A DNA stretch of 64,000 bases from Escherichia phage OES_C-1, in sequence record PQ553088, one strand, 5' to 3'. The notes under the pieces were generated by a model. It searched no databases and was not told where the DNA came from. It saw nothing but the letters and a program-made list of their open reading frames with translations. The stretch's first letter is position 1; the number at the start of each line of letters is the position of its first letter. Positions 3,677 to 36,967 of the stretch are shown piece after piece. Made by a program: the position numbers and the translations under genes.

Positions 3677-6817
<3,141 letters not shown>

Positions 6818-30737: not shown

Positions 30738-30765
30738 ATGGGGACCGAAAGGTCCCCATGTTTTT
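30738..30765 (+). terminator. intrinsic terminator after gene 54
   Basis: ATGGGGACC-GAAA-GGTCCCCAT followed by GTTTTTATTT. Confidence 0.7.
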
Positions 30766-31054
30766 ATTTACGGAATGAAATAAAAGCAGCAACTGAAGCA
30801 ACTAAACTGTCTTCAATATAAACTTCAATTTTTACCGGAGTTTCTGACTCAAATTTACCTGTTACTACACCCTGGAAAATGCTTTCAGTCTGTTCTGGCT
30901 TTGAGAAATTTTCAGAAGGAAAAATTCCGAACTTTTTATCTGTTCCAAAAATTTTGATAAATTCGTCGTAAACCGCTTCATTAAAAGCGTTATCAGCAGG
31001 AATAACGCCTTCAACTATGAGTTCTTGACCTAAAAAGCGCAAAGAAGATTTCAT
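30764..31054 (-). CDS. hypothetical protein (gene 54-alt intergenic ORF)
   Basis: 96-aa ORF with early promoter and GAGG RBS upstream. Confidence 0.55.
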   Translation of the reverse strand: MKSSLRFLGQELIVEGVIPADNAFNEAVYDEFIKIFGTDKKFGIFPSENFSKPEQTESIFQGVVTGKFESETPVKIEVYIEDSLVASVAAFISFRK

Positions 31055-31085: not shown

Positions 31086-31115
31086 ATTATAACACAACAC
31101 GAGTGACTTGTAAAC
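31086..31115 (-). promoter_or_regulatory. early (sigma70-type) promoter GTTTAC-N18-TATAAT
   Basis: Minus strand GTTTAC (31110-31115) and TATAAT (31086-31091); drives the 96-aa ORF. Confidence 0.55.
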
Positions 31116-33172
31116 TACATCTTGAACTTTTTAGACATTCCATTGATGTTAACCAAAGAAGCCAAGATTTGAGAAACTTCATTTTCCTCTTCTTTTGATT
31201 CTTCTACAAGGAATTGGTTAAATCCAGTCATTGGACGAACTTCACCAGTTTCCATCAGATGGTCACCATCATATACCGATTCTTCTAATTGTTCAGAAGG
31301 AGGAACGATTGTGCCTTCGATTAGATACTTGTTATAAGCAGTTTCTTTCATCATGTACGTACTCACTTTATTAATCTTCAGCAAAATTCCACGCGGTAGA
31401 ATAACTTCAGCTTCTGATGGAAATCCTGATAAATGACCTGGAACGATAACTTTGATTCGCTCAGCTCCTTTAATTACCATACCCACGCTAGTTTCAGCAT
31501 CTTCATTGGCATACGCAGAATGACTGCCCATATGCATTAAATCTTCAGCATCAACGGAACCTTCTCCTTCACCAGAAAATACTGCACTGGAATCATCTAG
31601 GGCCATATAGTTTTTACCATACTCACCGAAGATATTTGGTTTAAGTGATGTGGATACGAAGTTCTTGAAATAGAACATTTTATTTTCAATATTATGACGT
31701 AAAGTTTTAAAGGTAACTTCTTGGCCACGGTAAAGCGTAGTTCCTGGAGGAAGAACTGATCCTTTGGCAAAGGCAGAATCCATTGTCTCGATGTGTTTAA
31801 TAGCTCGTTCCATGTATTCTTCACGTGTAGAATCTGGTTTACCTAAAAGGAACGAGTTCATTTCAACATATGAATCTGCACAATAATCTTCAATTACATC
31901 AGACTCAGCTTGAGTTAATCCTTTTGGAGTTACTTCAGTACTTGCATATTCATACGCTTGAGAAGCAGACTCATTAATCAATTTATAAACGCCATTCATG
32001 ACAAATTGAACAATAGCTACCTTTTCATCTGGCGTGGCTTTAGAACCTTTAACTAAATCATTGATAATTTTCTTAATAACATCAAAGCTATTAGAAATAT
32101 TAATGTCAGCAAGATCGCTTAAAATTTTATCAGTTTTATAATCAAAAAATTCTTTATTCTTTAAATATTCCTGAGAACCTTGATATGTTATATCGCTCTG
32201 TAACTTGATAGATGGATCACGTAAACGTGCATGAGCCAATGCAATATGATTTCGGAAGCTTTCGAGTTCATAATCACTAGATTTAAAACGAGAAGCACTT
32301 CTCATACCACCGATAGCTCCTTTGCTGAAGTTTGAACCAACCTGAATAACGCCGGAGTTCATTGGTCCTTCTGCTTTATATACCGGAACTTTAGATTCAA
32401 ACTCTTGATATTTCTTAGCAGCGAAGCTATCACCCTGAAGTGAAGCATCGACAGTAGAGTATTGAGCTTGTGCTGCTAATCGACGACTAATTTTAGTTTT
32501 CTGAATAACAGCTTGATCTGTGCGCTTATCATTTTCTAAAGCAATAGAAGCAGCAACAGCGACAGCTTTAGGAACAGCATTACCTGTTTTAACATCTACA
32601 TAAACATCACCAACCTTTGATTCAACTTTTGTGAATAACTCAGTTGAAATAGGAGGTACACCTGGAATGTCTTCTAAATTGGCATTTTTACGGTAAACCA
32701 TAATATATGCATATTTCTTATCATAGTCCCAGATTTCCTTTAAAAGAACATATCGACCTGCTCCTTTAGTACGTACTAAACGGTCGGCAATAACTTGCAT
32801 TTGACGAGCAGCGCCATTTGTTTTACTTTTTAGTACGCGGAATAGGCATGCGTCAATTTTATACTGTTTCATTGTTTGAAGAGCAGTATCAAAAACCGCA
32901 TTAATGACACCAATTGGATTTCCACCCAAGTTTTTAAGTTTAACTAATGATAGTTTTTCATTGACACCTATCATTACGATATGCATCATTTTATCGCCTG
33001 GCTTAACGTTTTTATTTGTATCACCGCCAGAGGTGTATGTACAAAATCTAAATCCAGGAAGCACACTTTCTTCACCTGCTTGAATAGCAAAAATTTGAGG
33101 TATTTTATGCTTAGGATTTAAGTTAACAACCGGCGCCGAAGCGCCGTCAAATAATTCTGTAATAAGTTCCAT
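31115..33172 (-). CDS. Alt-family ADP-ribosyltransferase paralog (685 aa)
   Basis: N-terminal ~230 aa about 65% identical to the adjacent Alt; ART R-S-EXE motifs (YRGQ, FVSTSL, EAEVILPRG). Confidence 0.8.
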   Translation of the reverse strand: MELITELFDGASAPVVNLNPKHKIPQIFAIQAGEESVLPGFRFCTYTSGGDTNKNVKPGDKMMHIVMIGVNEKLSLVKLKNLGGNPIGVINAVFDTALQTMKQYKIDACLFRVLKSKTNGAARQMQVIADRLVRTKGAGRYVLLKEIWDYDKKYAYIMVYRKNANLEDIPGVPPISTELFTKVESKVGDVYVDVKTGNAVPKAVAVAASIALENDKRTDQAVIQKTKISRRLAAQAQYSTVDASLQGDSFAAKKYQEFESKVPVYKAEGPMNSGVIQVGSNFSKGAIGGMRSASRFKSSDYELESFRNHIALAHARLRDPSIKLQSDITYQGSQEYLKNKEFFDYKTDKILSDLADINISNSFDVIKKIINDLVKGSKATPDEKVAIVQFVMNGVYKLINESASQAYEYASTEVTPKGLTQAESDVIEDYCADSYVEMNSFLLGKPDSTREEYMERAIKHIETMDSAFAKGSVLPPGTTLYRGQEVTFKTLRHNIENKMFYFKNFVSTSLKPNIFGEYGKNYMALDDSSAVFSGEGEGSVDAEDLMHMGSHSAYANEDAETSVGMVIKGAERIKVIVPGHLSGFPSEAEVILPRGILLKINKVSTYMMKETAYNKYLIEGTIVPPSEQLEESVYDGDHLMETGEVRPMTGFNQFLVEESKEEENEVSQILASLVNINGMSKKFKM

Positions 33173-33175
33173 GAT

Positions 33176-35272
33176 TTATCCTTGAACGAACTTGTAAGGC
33201 ATGTTTGTAATATCTATGCAAGACGCAATAATTCCAAGAGATGATTCTACTTTCTGTTTAACATTTGATGAAACAAATGATGCAAAGTCAACTCTGTCTT
33301 CTATTTCAATATCACCTGTCATTGCAACTACTTCACCAGTTTCCATTAGACGGTCACCGTCATAAATTACTGATTCGGTGAGTTCTTCCGTAGTCATAAC
33401 TTCAGCTTGAATGAGTTTTGTATTATTAGATGTTGTTCCGTCATTATTAGAAGCATCAGTTATTTTATTAACTTTGACCATCAATCCGCGTGGTAGAATT
33501 ACTTCAGCTTCTGTTGCTATTCCGAGACTTCCTGGATATACAACATTAACTTTATGAGCTCCATCAATTGCCCATCCTATTTGAACTTTAACGTATTCAG
33601 GATTTTCTTTATACGCTCTTATTTCGTTTGGATTAATAGTTATTCCTTCTTCATTTTTATCAACTGTTAATTCATTGCGAGCTTCTGGTTCTAAAAGACC
33701 GATACCAGCATGTGTAATTCCAAAACGTCCAAAAATGATAGGAGTTAAAGAAGTAGATACAAAATTTCTGAAATAGAACACTTTATTTTTAACTAGTGCT
33801 TCGTATATAGGAGCAGTCATACTTTGAGCACGATAAACTGTAATGCCTTCTGGTATACGGTCACCATTTTCAAAAGCTGAATCTAAGTTATTTATAGCAG
33901 ATTCAATTTCTTTTTCACTCATTACATCATATCGTTCTGGATTGTAGCGGCCTAAAAGAAGATTATTGATGTCAGTATATCCTGATCCACAATACTCTCT
34001 AATGCCGCGCTTTTGCGATGGAGTATATTTAGAACCATCACGTGCAATGGTAATATCAATCATTGGACCTGCACCAATTCCAGAAAAGCTATAAATCATT
34101 CGTTTGAGGAATTTAGTTTTTGCTGCGTTCCAGGAATTTTTAGTTATTTCTTCCCAGACTTCATCTGGCTGCCCTTTACGAGTTTTATTATGTTTATCAA
34201 GCCAATTATCTTTATATTCTTCAAAGAGTTGATTAATAGCTGCTGCGTATTTCTCTAAACATTTTATTGAAGTAGTTGGTTCATTTTTAATCGCATTAAG
34301 AATTACATCTTTAATTTTTTCAGAAACTTCATCAACCTCACTTTTTGAAAAGAATTTATAGTCATAGTGAAGTTCATTTGCAGTTCCTTCGGCAATAATT
34401 TTTGCTGCCTTAGTTTTAGAAGCTAATGAATTAATTCCAAGCTTCATTTCTTCTGCTTCGGGAATTAAAGGAGCGGTAGCAGGTTTATTAAAATTAGCTG
34501 CGGTAGATTCATACTTCTGGAATAATTCACTTTCAAATCTAGAAGATTCTAATGACTGACTTTGCGCAATTGCTCTACGGGAAATTTTAACTTTAACAAT
34601 AACAGCTTGGTCAGAACGTTTATCATTTTCTTGTGCAATAGATGCTGCAATTGCCTCATTTTTAGTTACTTGAGCTCCGGTATCTTTATTGATATAAACA
34701 TCGCCGACCTTCGATTCAACTTTAGTAAAGAGCTCGGTACTAATTTCCGGAACTCCTGGAATGTCTTCTAGTGATACATTTTTGCGATGTATAAGAATAT
34801 ATGCATACTTTTTATCATAATCCCAGAGTTCCTTAAGAAGGACGTATCTGCCACCTGAACGACTACGGATAAGTCTATCAGCAATAACTTGAATTTGTCG
34901 AGCTTGACCAGCAGTTTTAGACTTAAGAATACGAAGCATACAGGCATCAATTTTATACTGACGCATTGTTTGCATTGCAACAGTAAAAACTGAATTGATG
35001 TAATTAATTGGGCTTGGACCGAGACCTTTTAATTTAGCAATTGAACCTTTAGCAGTTAGTGTAAAAGGAACAATGTGCATCATTTTATCGCCCATCTTTA
35101 AATCACGGTTAGTATCACCTCCAGATGTATATGTACATAAACGAAAGCCTGGTTGCTCAATTGCGTCATCAACATGAACTGAAAAAATTTGCGGTATTTT
35201 CTTCTTTGGATTTAAGTTTGTAATCGGAAGAGTAGTATCTTCGTCAAATAATTCTGTAATAAGTTCCATCAT
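33176..35272 (-). CDS. alt: Alt ADP-ribosyltransferase (packaged internal head protein), 698 aa
   Basis: MELITELFD N-terminus; ART motifs YRAQ, FVSTSL, EAEVILPRG; minus-strand late promoter at 35293-35300. Confidence 0.85.
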   Translation of the reverse strand: MMELITELFDEDTTLPITNLNPKKKIPQIFSVHVDDAIEQPGFRLCTYTSGGDTNRDLKMGDKMMHIVPFTLTAKGSIAKLKGLGPSPINYINSVFTVAMQTMRQYKIDACMLRILKSKTAGQARQIQVIADRLIRSRSGGRYVLLKELWDYDKKYAYILIHRKNVSLEDIPGVPEISTELFTKVESKVGDVYINKDTGAQVTKNEAIAASIAQENDKRSDQAVIVKVKISRRAIAQSQSLESSRFESELFQKYESTAANFNKPATAPLIPEAEEMKLGINSLASKTKAAKIIAEGTANELHYDYKFFSKSEVDEVSEKIKDVILNAIKNEPTTSIKCLEKYAAAINQLFEEYKDNWLDKHNKTRKGQPDEVWEEITKNSWNAAKTKFLKRMIYSFSGIGAGPMIDITIARDGSKYTPSQKRGIREYCGSGYTDINNLLLGRYNPERYDVMSEKEIESAINNLDSAFENGDRIPEGITVYRAQSMTAPIYEALVKNKVFYFRNFVSTSLTPIIFGRFGITHAGIGLLEPEARNELTVDKNEEGITINPNEIRAYKENPEYVKVQIGWAIDGAHKVNVVYPGSLGIATEAEVILPRGLMVKVNKITDASNNDGTTSNNTKLIQAEVMTTEELTESVIYDGDRLMETGEVVAMTGDIEIEDRVDFASFVSSNVKQKVESSLGIIASCIDITNMPYKFVQG

Positions 35273-35292: not shown

Positions 35293-35300
35293 TATTTATA
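35293..35300 (-). promoter_or_regulatory. late promoter TATAAATA (alt)
   Basis: Plus TATTTATA, 21 nt upstream of the 698-aa Alt start. Confidence 0.55.
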
Positions 35301-35321
35301 AAATTAAAGGCCCGAAGGCCT

Positions 35322-35510
35322 TTAATAATCTAGTGGTAAGAGAGTACGGTATATTTCAAACTTTGGACCTTTTTCGTAGGCATCAAATGTTTCTGTAAAT
35401 TTATTATAAGCATACGCATCTACAAATTCGAGAATGACTTGCGATACCGAAGTAGAAACATCTCCACCTTCTTTTTGAGCAACGACAATTGTTTCTAAGT
35501 AAGCTTTCAT
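35322..35510 (-). CDS. hypothetical protein (alt.1 position)
   Basis: 62-aa ORF overlapping gene 30 stop by 4 nt. Confidence 0.5.
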   Translation of the reverse strand: MKAYLETIVVAQKEGGDVSTSVSQVILEFVDAYAYNKFTETFDAYEKGPKFEIYRTLLPLDY

Positions 35511-36967
35511 AGACCAGTTACCTCATGAAAATCACCAAATACATCCTCGAATGTATTAGCTTTAGTTTTATCTTCACGTAAACGAATCGCAATTGGAAGA
35601 AATAATTTAACGTAATCAGTGCGGCCATCAGATTTTAACCAACCGTTGCATTCGCACTCTAAAATTTTTCCAATATAATAATTTTGGTTTTCCATAATGC
35701 GAGTACGGTCAAGTTCATGTGATTTTACACCAGCTTTATCTTTTAAGCCCGAACCAGCATTTACCTTAATTTTTCCACACTCTGATTCAAGAATAAATCC
35801 ACCTGCTTTAGTAGGGTCTTTACGGTGAGGATAAATTCCTACAATTTTTAAATCAACATCAATTACTTCTTTAAATTTATAGAGATTTTTTGAACGAGCA
35901 TTTTCCCACAATCCATCGGTATTTTTGAGAATAATACCTTCAAGACCTTGGTCAATATATTTTTTATAAATTACCTTAGCTTCATCTAGGTTATTTACTA
36001 CCTGGTTTTCAATTAAAATTACTTTATCATATCCTGATGTCATTTGTTCTAGTTTAGAAAAACGTACATCATATTTTAAACGAAACGTCGGAAGACCGTA
36101 TATTTCTACTAACGGAACATAATCCCAGACCTGAAACTTCATGCATTTGGCTTCTTTTTCTGAAATAGTTCCCTTTAAAGATTTATTGGCGATTCCATTA
36201 GAAGCAGTACGAGATTCAGCTACTTCGGCAAACTCTTTAGCTTTACTATTTTCAGGAGCATCAAAAAGAAAATCTAGGCCTTCTGGTTCCTTTTCAACTT
36301 GCTCATGGTATACCAATTCGCCATCAATTAACACACCTTCTGGATGAATCTGGCGGGCTTCAGCGGTCATTTTGATTAACTCTTCCTTAAGAAGATCTAA
36401 TCCTAGATATTCATTACCAGCTCGTGATAAAAGACGAACATCATCTAATTCATCTCCTCTGACTTCAGCAAAACACCGAGCTCCATCTGCTTTTAACTGC
36501 GCAAAAGCTGGAAATTTTATATTCTTACTAATGCCTTTTTCATCATAAGAACTTGCCAGCATTTGAGGTTGTTCAGGAATTAAACCTGGCCAAACTTTGT
36601 TTGCAATAGATACTGAAGCACCACATTCAAGGTCTCGCATCATAACTCGACGCAAAACTTCAACATCATCCTTTTTACCATCGGTGATATAACCAGTTAA
36701 TTCCTCAATTGCCGCGTTTCCAGTCAATTTCCGAGTAGCTAACGTGAATTCAATGAAGTCAAGCATATCGGTAATAGTCAGCATTCCAAAACTCTGGGTA
36801 GCAATACCAGGTTTAGGCCATTTCTTAATATAATACTGTAACCCGCGAGAATAAGTCAGACGATATACTCGTTTAAGCAATTCATTATCTTTATTCTTTT
36901 CAAGAATTGCTTGCTTCTGCTTAGTTGATCCAATAGATGCTATTTCATTCAGAATTTTAAGAATCAT
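35507..36967 (-). CDS. 30: ATP-dependent DNA ligase gp30
   Basis: 486 aa; adenylation motif KADGARCF. Confidence 0.95.
   Translation of the reverse strand: MILKILNEIASIGSTKQKQAILEKNKDNELLKRVYRLTYSRGLQYYIKKWPKPGIATQSFGMLTITDMLDFIEFTLATRKLTGNAAIEELTGYITDGKKDDVEVLRRVMMRDLECGASVSIANKVWPGLIPEQPQMLASSYDEKGISKNIKFPAFAQLKADGARCFAEVRGDELDDVRLLSRAGNEYLGLDLLKEELIKMTAEARQIHPEGVLIDGELVYHEQVEKEPEGLDFLFDAPENSKAKEFAEVAESRTASNGIANKSLKGTISEKEAKCMKFQVWDYVPLVEIYGLPTFRLKYDVRFSKLEQMTSGYDKVILIENQVVNNLDEAKVIYKKYIDQGLEGIILKNTDGLWENARSKNLYKFKEVIDVDLKIVGIYPHRKDPTKAGGFILESECGKIKVNAGSGLKDKAGVKSHELDRTRIMENQNYYIGKILECECNGWLKSDGRTDYVKLFLPIAIRLREDKTKANTFEDVFGDFHEVTGL

Follow-up and report, generated by a model that had tools for sequence, protein, structure and literature searches.

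The 64,000-nucleotide (nt) stretch of Escherichia phage OES_C-1 analysed here (record PQ553088; called the window below) carries, in tandem on its minus strand, two genes of the Alt family of ADP-ribosyltransferases (ARTs): alt1, the positional orthologue of T4 alt, and a downstream paralogue, alt2. Their products are probably two late-expressed, head-packaged and injected arginine ARTs, which share a packaging module and differ in the modules for substrate recognition and catalysis. The tandem pair is the norm in T-even phages: hundreds of genome records already annotate it, and it was noted in print as early as 2006. Because T4 lacks it, the second enzyme has apparently never been characterised. 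Escherichia phages OES_C-2 and OES_C-3, whose records label each gene “hypothetical protein”, matched the 4.9 kb around the pair with 100% identity, and many other Tequatrovirus genomes matched them with 97-99%; the source of the window is a T4-like (T-even) coliphage.

Gene structure, family membership and conservation of alt1 and alt2

The original prediction, made from the DNA letters alone, had described two adjacent same-strand open reading frames (ORFs) with about 65% identity over the N-terminal third, a diverging middle and an R-S-EXE signature in both, and all of this was borne out. The two ORFs encode 698 amino acids (aa; counted from the first ATG) and 685 aa and are separated by 3 nt. 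The alt1 ORF opens with ATGATG, and its second ATG (697 aa, MELITE...) lies at a better distance from a GAGG ribosome-binding site; the annotations of T2, T6 and PP01 use this second start. The two proteins were 41% identical overall (BLASTP, E=4e-159): 68% in the N-domain (aa 1-240), about 15% in the middle (aa 240-415), 33-36% in the ART domain and 28-45% in the C-terminal tail. In DNA the N-domains were 67.5% identical, and the longest exact word common to the two genes was 28 nt. This word is the very start of both genes (ATGGAACTTATTACAGAATTATTTGACG; 35269-35242 and 33172-33145, minus strand), where synonymous sites are also kept; gene conversion, or a constraint on the translation start/propeptide region, is a possible cause.

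Both proteins scored well above the gathering cut-off (23.4 bits) of PF03496 (ADPrib_exo_Tox), with 129.5 bits (E=1.3e-37) for alt1 and 73.3 bits (E=2.2e-20) for alt2, and both matched the PHROG “Alt-like RNA polymerase ADP-ribosyltransferase” from end to end. PF26846 (Tevenvirinae_ADPRT) was found, among precomputed assignments, for a protein cluster 98% identical (P0001), for T4 Alt (P0119) and for the hybrids described below. The Tevenvirinae_ADPRT N-domain was followed by an ART domain, and its alignment with 16 homologues ran from end to end. For the whole proteins, no match was obtained among PDB sequences or in NCBIfam; the N-terminal and middle regions, scanned separately against Pfam, yielded nothing but noise below the threshold. 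Non-ART effectors fused to the N-domain were sought with a profile in a set of 5.8 billion proteins, which returned 9 matches, mostly fragments or truncated Alt genes. One of the 9, a 338-aa metagenome protein (P0129) with the AMP-binding domains PF00501 and PF23562, matched the N-domain profile over about one third of its length (E=4e-18); this case is doubtful, and the fusion may be genuine or stem from a chimeric contig.

The catalytic residues of alt2 were R482 (LYRGQ), S507-T-S509 (FVSTSL) and E587-A-E589 (EAEVILPRG), and the corresponding motifs of alt1 were YRAQ, FVSTSL and EAEVILPRG. The R, S-T-S and E-x-E columns were invariant in an alignment of 19 homologues (42-96% identity), in which no loss of a catalytic residue was found in either copy. 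The AlphaFold model of alt2 (mean predicted local distance difference test score, pLDDT, 75.6) comprised an alpha/beta N-domain, an all-helical middle, an ART domain and a disordered C-terminal tail, and the predicted ART fold resembles those of solved C3/VIP2-type enzymes.

Both ORFs were intact in the four genomes examined (window, PP01, T2 and T6). Ratios of non-synonymous to synonymous substitution rates (dN/dS) against T2, T6 and PP01 were 0.025-0.055 for alt1 and 0.037-0.051 for alt2, at synonymous divergences (dS) of 0.08-0.23; as far as the sequences tell, both copies are functional genes under strong purifying selection.

Processing motifs and expression signals

Alt of T4 is a component of the prohead core, present in about 40 copies per head and injected with the DNA (PMC9026906), and it modifies Arg265 of RNA polymerase alpha, on one subunit, and other proteins (PMC2988021; PMC9026906). 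The gp21 prohead protease cuts it after ITE-6 and LTE-619, as determined by mass spectrometry, giving a mature protein of 68.2 kDa (Ali et al. 2017, PMC5694885). The mapping of sites used here was validated by the mass computed for T4 Alt with these two sites (68.2 kDa), which equals the published one. At the level of motifs, ITE-6 and a C-terminal L-x-E|SV occupied aligned positions in alt1, alt2 and T4 Alt (Table 1). The view that the N-terminal third is the region of “capsid targeting and processing” proved only loosely right: the published cuts remove 6 N-terminal and 63 C-terminal residues (PMC5694885), and the N-domain may contribute to packaging. The conserved signals suggest that alt2 follows the packaging and injection route of T4 Alt.

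The original prediction had also stated that only the upstream copy has a late promoter of its own. It was right in that alt2 has no clear promoter; it had overlooked a second TATAAATA on the same strand within alt1. This internal element could have arisen fortuitously or could serve as a minor late promoter within the gene: the window contains 19 matches to TATAAATA, of which about half are expected by chance. As a late promoter belonging to alt2 it was rejected, since PP01 does not have it and the motif often occurs by chance. No terminator-like sites were seen between alt1 and alt2, and the junction, with the AAGGA ribosome-binding site, was identical in T2, T6 and PP01. Alt2 is most likely co-transcribed with alt1, and is likely translationally coupled to it because only 3 nt lie between the alt1 stop and the alt2 ATG.

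Taken together, the following course can be proposed. Both genes would be transcribed late from the single TATAAATA promoter upstream of alt1, with alt2 coupled in translation. Each protein would begin with a 6-residue N-terminal propeptide ending in ITE. Next would come an N-domain of about 235 aa (“Tevenvirinae_ADPRT”), which varies with the genus of the phage and whose most likely role is to hold the protein in the prohead core. The effector behind it, divergent between the two proteins, would combine the helical middle with the R-S-ExE arginine-specific ART domain, and a C-terminal propeptide would follow the L-x-E motif. If they behave like T4 Alt, both proteins would enter the prohead during its assembly, lose their two end pieces to the gp21 protease and pass into the host with the injected DNA. 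There they would ADP-ribosylate host proteins ahead of all phage gene expression. The two effectors most likely act on different host substrates, because they belong to two old clades (see below) with only 15-35% identity; such different targets are probable, and are held less firmly than the overall picture.

Table 1. Features of the alt locus and its surroundings (window coordinates; minus-strand features are read from the higher to the lower position).
Feature	Coordinates	Strand	Details
Gene 30 (DNA ligase)	35507-36967	-	Upstream of alt.1
alt.1	35322-35510	-	62 aa; upstream neighbour of alt1
Terminator hairpin of alt.1	~35306-35323		AAAGGCCTTCGGGCCTTT; just ahead of the alt1 late promoter
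T4-type late promoter	35293-35300	-	TATAAATA; before alt1; common to T4, T2, T6 and PP01
alt1	33176-35272	-	Upstream Alt gene, positional orthologue of T4 alt; 698 aa from ATG 35272, 697 aa from ATG 35269
alt1 layout (698-aa numbering)			N-domain 1-240; helical middle 241-410; ART domain ~411-630; C-terminal propeptide after LTE|SV
alt1 gp21 motifs			ITE-6 and LTE-632; predicted mature form 626 aa, 70.1 kDa
Second TATAAATA	33889-33896	-	Inside alt1, 717 nt 5' of the alt2 start; in T2 and T6, absent from PP01
Ribosome-binding site of alt2	33179-33183	-	AAGGA; ends directly before the alt1 stop TAA (33178-33176)
alt2	31115-33172	-	Downstream Alt paralogue; 685 aa
alt2 layout			N-domain aa 1-238 (33172-32459); helical middle 239-415; ART domain 416-625 (31927-31298)
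alt2 gp21-type motifs			ITE-6 and LEE-631 (E631 invariant); predicted mature form 625 aa (residues 7-631), 69.1 kDa; C-terminal propeptide 54 aa
Direct repeat, first copy	32825-32833	-	CTAAAAAGT; alt2 nt 340-348; left end of the T4 deletion
Direct repeat, second copy	31126-31134	-	CTAAAAAGT; alt2 nt 2039-2047; right end of the T4 deletion
Sigma-70 early promoter	31086-31114	-	TTTACA-17-TATAAT with TG; strong, 11/12 consensus; begins directly after the alt2 stop
alt.-3	30764-31054	-	96 aa, DUF5498; downstream neighbour of alt2
Bidirectional terminator-like hairpin	30738-30759		Perfect 9-bp stem ATGGGGACC...GGTCCCCAT; between the converging genes 54 and alt.-3

Genes 54 and 48 lie on the plus strand and converge on the alt locus. 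The early promoter downstream of alt2 drives alt.-3, not the alt genes; C-terminal extension mutants of T4 Alt.-3 escape the CmdTAC defence by stabilising CmdA (bioRxiv 10.1101/2024.02.24.581662). The hairpin between gene 54 and alt.-3 is also found in T4, with a 2-nt difference just upstream. At the other end of the locus, alt.1 matched the Pfam family “Phage_blade” (PF24647) in related contigs, and is labelled “siderophore-interacting protein” in several GenBank records, which looks like a propagated mis-annotation; the alt genes themselves are labelled “DNA ligase” or “thymidylate synthase” in some records.

Loss of alt2 in T4, distribution of the pair and exchange of modules

In T4, alt (682 aa) is directly followed, in the position of alt2, by two short genes, alt.-1 (61 aa) and alt.-2 (67 aa), and there is no full-length second copy. 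These short genes (NP_049810 and NP_049809) correspond to residues 1-55 and 62-118 of alt2, with about 95% identity, and not to alt's own sequence. A 1-bp deletion in an A-run splits the alt2 frame into alt.-1 and alt.-2, and T4 lacks exactly 1699 bp of alt2, between two 9-bp direct repeats CTAAAAAGT; the T4 junction (...GTACTAAAAAGT|TCAAAATGTAG...) retains one copy of the repeat, which identifies T4 as a deletion derivative of a genome with the full pair. The GenBank note on T4 treats alt.-1 and alt.-2 as an old duplication of the first part of alt, as if only a portion of the gene had been copied; the alignment made here shows them instead to be what a deletion left of a full-length paralogue. 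By this sequence comparison T4 lost alt2 from a full-pair ancestor through a frameshift and a repeat-flanked deletion, and this explains why a single Alt is seen in the model phage. The T4 deletion ends 12 nt upstream of the alt.-3 early promoter.

The alt region was matched by 543 phage records. The 1.69 kb absent from T4 was found in 401 of them with 94-100% nucleotide identity, including T2, T6, RB3 and RB51, and the T4 deletion junction was whole in 91 records; the pair is thus carried by about three quarters of Tequatrovirus-type records. The Alt N-domain was found at 1818 places in 1201 phage records. T2 (AYD82792 and AYD82791) and T6 (YP_010067345 and YP_010067344) have the identical arrangement of 697 and 685 aa, and RB51 also carries an annotated tandem Alt pair. 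Beyond Tequatrovirus, tandem pairs at the same locus were found in SP18 (altA/altB, Gaprivervirus), Merlin (Moonvirus) and dhaeg (Dhakavirus), and single copies in JS09 (Mosigvirus) and Pet-CM3-4 (Karamvirus). An earlier survey listed alt.-1/alt.-2 and ORFs of RB49 and 44RR, one of them full-length, as paralogous alt duplications, the tandem pair of 44RR being ORF187c/188c (Nolan et al. 2006, PMC1524935); beyond that paper, no functional, proteomic or genetic work on the second copy was found in the literature searched, in which matches to “alt” in bNACHT papers were false. The hint in the original prediction of a lineage-specific duplication is contradicted by this distribution and by effector clades which cross genera, and it fails on the refuting condition which the prediction had itself set.

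These clades were obtained from neighbour-joining trees (100 bootstraps) of 13 proteins from six genera. The ART-domain and middle-region trees each gave two cross-genus clades with 100% support: one unites T4 Alt and the upstream copies from Tequatrovirus and Dhakavirus with the single copies found in Mosigvirus and Karamvirus, and the other unites the downstream copies from Tequatrovirus and Dhakavirus with those of Moonvirus. In the N-domain tree the proteins grouped by genus, with the upstream and downstream copies of Tequatrovirus together at 95%. The N-domain stays with its phage, as expected for a part which fits the phage's own head.

The alt1 effector itself varies within Tequatrovirus. 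Alt1 and T4 Alt were 72% identical overall: their N-domains agreed at about 100%, their ART domains at 66-67% and their middles at 31%. The alt1 effector was nearer to that of the Dhakavirus phage dhaeg (83% in the ART domain and 65% in the middle). Between the window and T4, dS exceeded 1 in the alt1 effector segment and was about 0.1 in its flanks; by DNA search, Tequatrovirus genomes carry this segment in three or more allelic forms. The middle and ART region of alt1 (33440-34520), a mosaic allele, was matched by about 319 records with at least 90% identity and by 26 with about 80%; T4-type genomes matched it with about 66% identity over half its length. A T4-type alt and a full alt2 are found together in, for example, vB_EcoM_G9062. 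On these sequence comparisons the effector module is old and diverse, and is exchanged by recombination.

Recombination between the two tandem copies is suggested by four protein clusters (P0003, P0004, P0006 and P0007), in which an alt1-type N-terminal stretch of varying length is followed by alt2 sequence, with four different crossover points. Two of these hybrids were traced to Tequatrovirus-type metagenome contigs (L016, 109.8 kb, positions 4001-6061; and L017, 65 kb, positions 4001-6055), in each of which alt.1 and alt.-3 flank just one alt gene, a hybrid with one clean crossover in the DNA. Assembly artefacts are unlikely, as the longest word shared by the two genes is far shorter than the k of 99 used for the ENA contig and each hybrid has one clean crossover. 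The hybrids look like unequal crossovers between tandem copies, and they show that the alt1 N-domain can carry the alt2 effector, the N-domains being interchangeable.

Alternative explanations and comparison with known systems

The two old effector clades, the alt1 effector alleles and the natural alt1N::alt2 hybrids led us to a further-reaching reading, which we hold tentatively and with slightly less than even confidence: Alt2 may be a second virion-delivered ART with host substrates of its own (for example a defence or translation factor, not RNA polymerase alpha), kept in most T-even phages, and the Alt locus may be a cassette system in which effector modules are swapped by recombination behind a genus-specific head-anchoring N-domain.

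A rival explanation is redundant dosage, with alt2 a second packaged Alt which acts on the same substrates (RNA polymerase alpha Arg265 and others) and raises or secures the activity. The two copies do belong to one family and share locus, catalytic motifs and processing motifs; either copy has been lost in nature (alt2 in T4, the alt1 effector in the hybrids), and T4 Alt itself is non-essential (PMC9026906). We nevertheless consider redundancy unlikely, given the low identity of the ART domains (33-36%) and middles (about 15%), the persistence of the effector types as separate clades across genera and the strong purifying selection on both copies, a pattern which fits specialised copies. Less likely still is that alt2 is made and left unpackaged, acting late inside the infected cell or on an RNA or DNA substrate, as in the case of ModB, which attaches RNA chains to host proteins. 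The literature searched yielded no proteomic evidence of packaging, T4 mutants which lack Alt and package more DNA are known (PMC3012670), and nucleic-acid-linked ART relatives exist in T4 and in defence systems (10.1101/2021.06.04.446905; 10.1101/2024.02.24.581662). Against this, alt2 has kept a whole N-domain, the ITE-6 propeptide and the C-terminal L-x-E, which would have no obvious purpose outside the prohead, and the hybrids use the N-part of alt1 to carry the alt2 body; a non-protein substrate also fits poorly with the E-x-E form and with the best structural matches of the predicted model, which are arginine-specific protein ARTs. Finally, the relic in T4 and the 91 junction records could suggest that alt2 is a decaying duplicate, a pseudogene in the making of which T4 is further along. 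This explanation is effectively refuted by the selection data (dN/dS of about 0.04-0.05), and the invariant catalytic residues, the full, highly conserved body in 401 records, the intact ORF in all four genomes and the related downstream copies in Dhakavirus and Moonvirus also speak against it.

Two packaged and injected ARTs with a common N-domain and different effectors therefore remain the preferred explanation, against which several points must be set. Nothing was found in the literature searched on the alt2 product being made, packaged, cleaved, injected or active, and the argument for different targets is drawn from sequence divergence. The genus-wise clustering of the N-domains could come from gene conversion between tandem copies and not from co-evolution with the head, and the trees behind it are of the neighbour-joining type with only 13 sequences. 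The effector of alt1 is dispensable in the hybrid phages, and alt2 in T4 and the other junction records, at least on some hosts.

The value of these results is mainly corrective. The injected ART of the T-even phages known from textbooks comes from T4, a deletion variant at the alt locus, and a second enzyme of the Alt type, under selection and probably injected, is encoded by about three quarters of the Tequatrovirus-type genomes sequenced, T2 and T6 among them. If its targets differ from those of Alt, the early host takeover by most T-even phages would include an overlooked modification, and phage-therapy candidates of Tequatrovirus would carry the second Alt as well. The locus is also a clean example of two routes of loss between tandem paralogues, microhomology-mediated deletion and unequal crossover.

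Among known systems, the annotated tandem pairs of T2, T6, PP01, RB51, SP18, Merlin, dhaeg and 44RR have the same two-gene arrangement and show no substantive difference from the window; the proteins of T2, T6 and PP01 are 98.9-99.1% (alt1) and 97.7-99.3% (alt2) identical to those described here. T4 Alt (NP_049811, NAD+--arginine ADP-ribosyltransferase) lies in the same locus order (gene 30 - alt.1 - alt - ... - alt.-3 - gene 54) behind the same late promoter, and has the same R/STS/ExE, ITE-6 and L-x-E|SV motifs as alt1 and alt2. It differs from alt1, which carries a different effector allele, and from alt2, whose N-domain is 68% identical to its own but which belongs to the other effector clade, with an ART domain 35% identical. 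The R-S-E arginine mono-ARTs of the C3/VIP2/iota-toxin/Vis group (PF03496) are secreted bacterial toxins with other delivery modules, whereas delivery of the Alt proteins is from the head of a phage, and they possess gp21 propeptides and an N-domain specific to the Tevenvirinae (PF26846).

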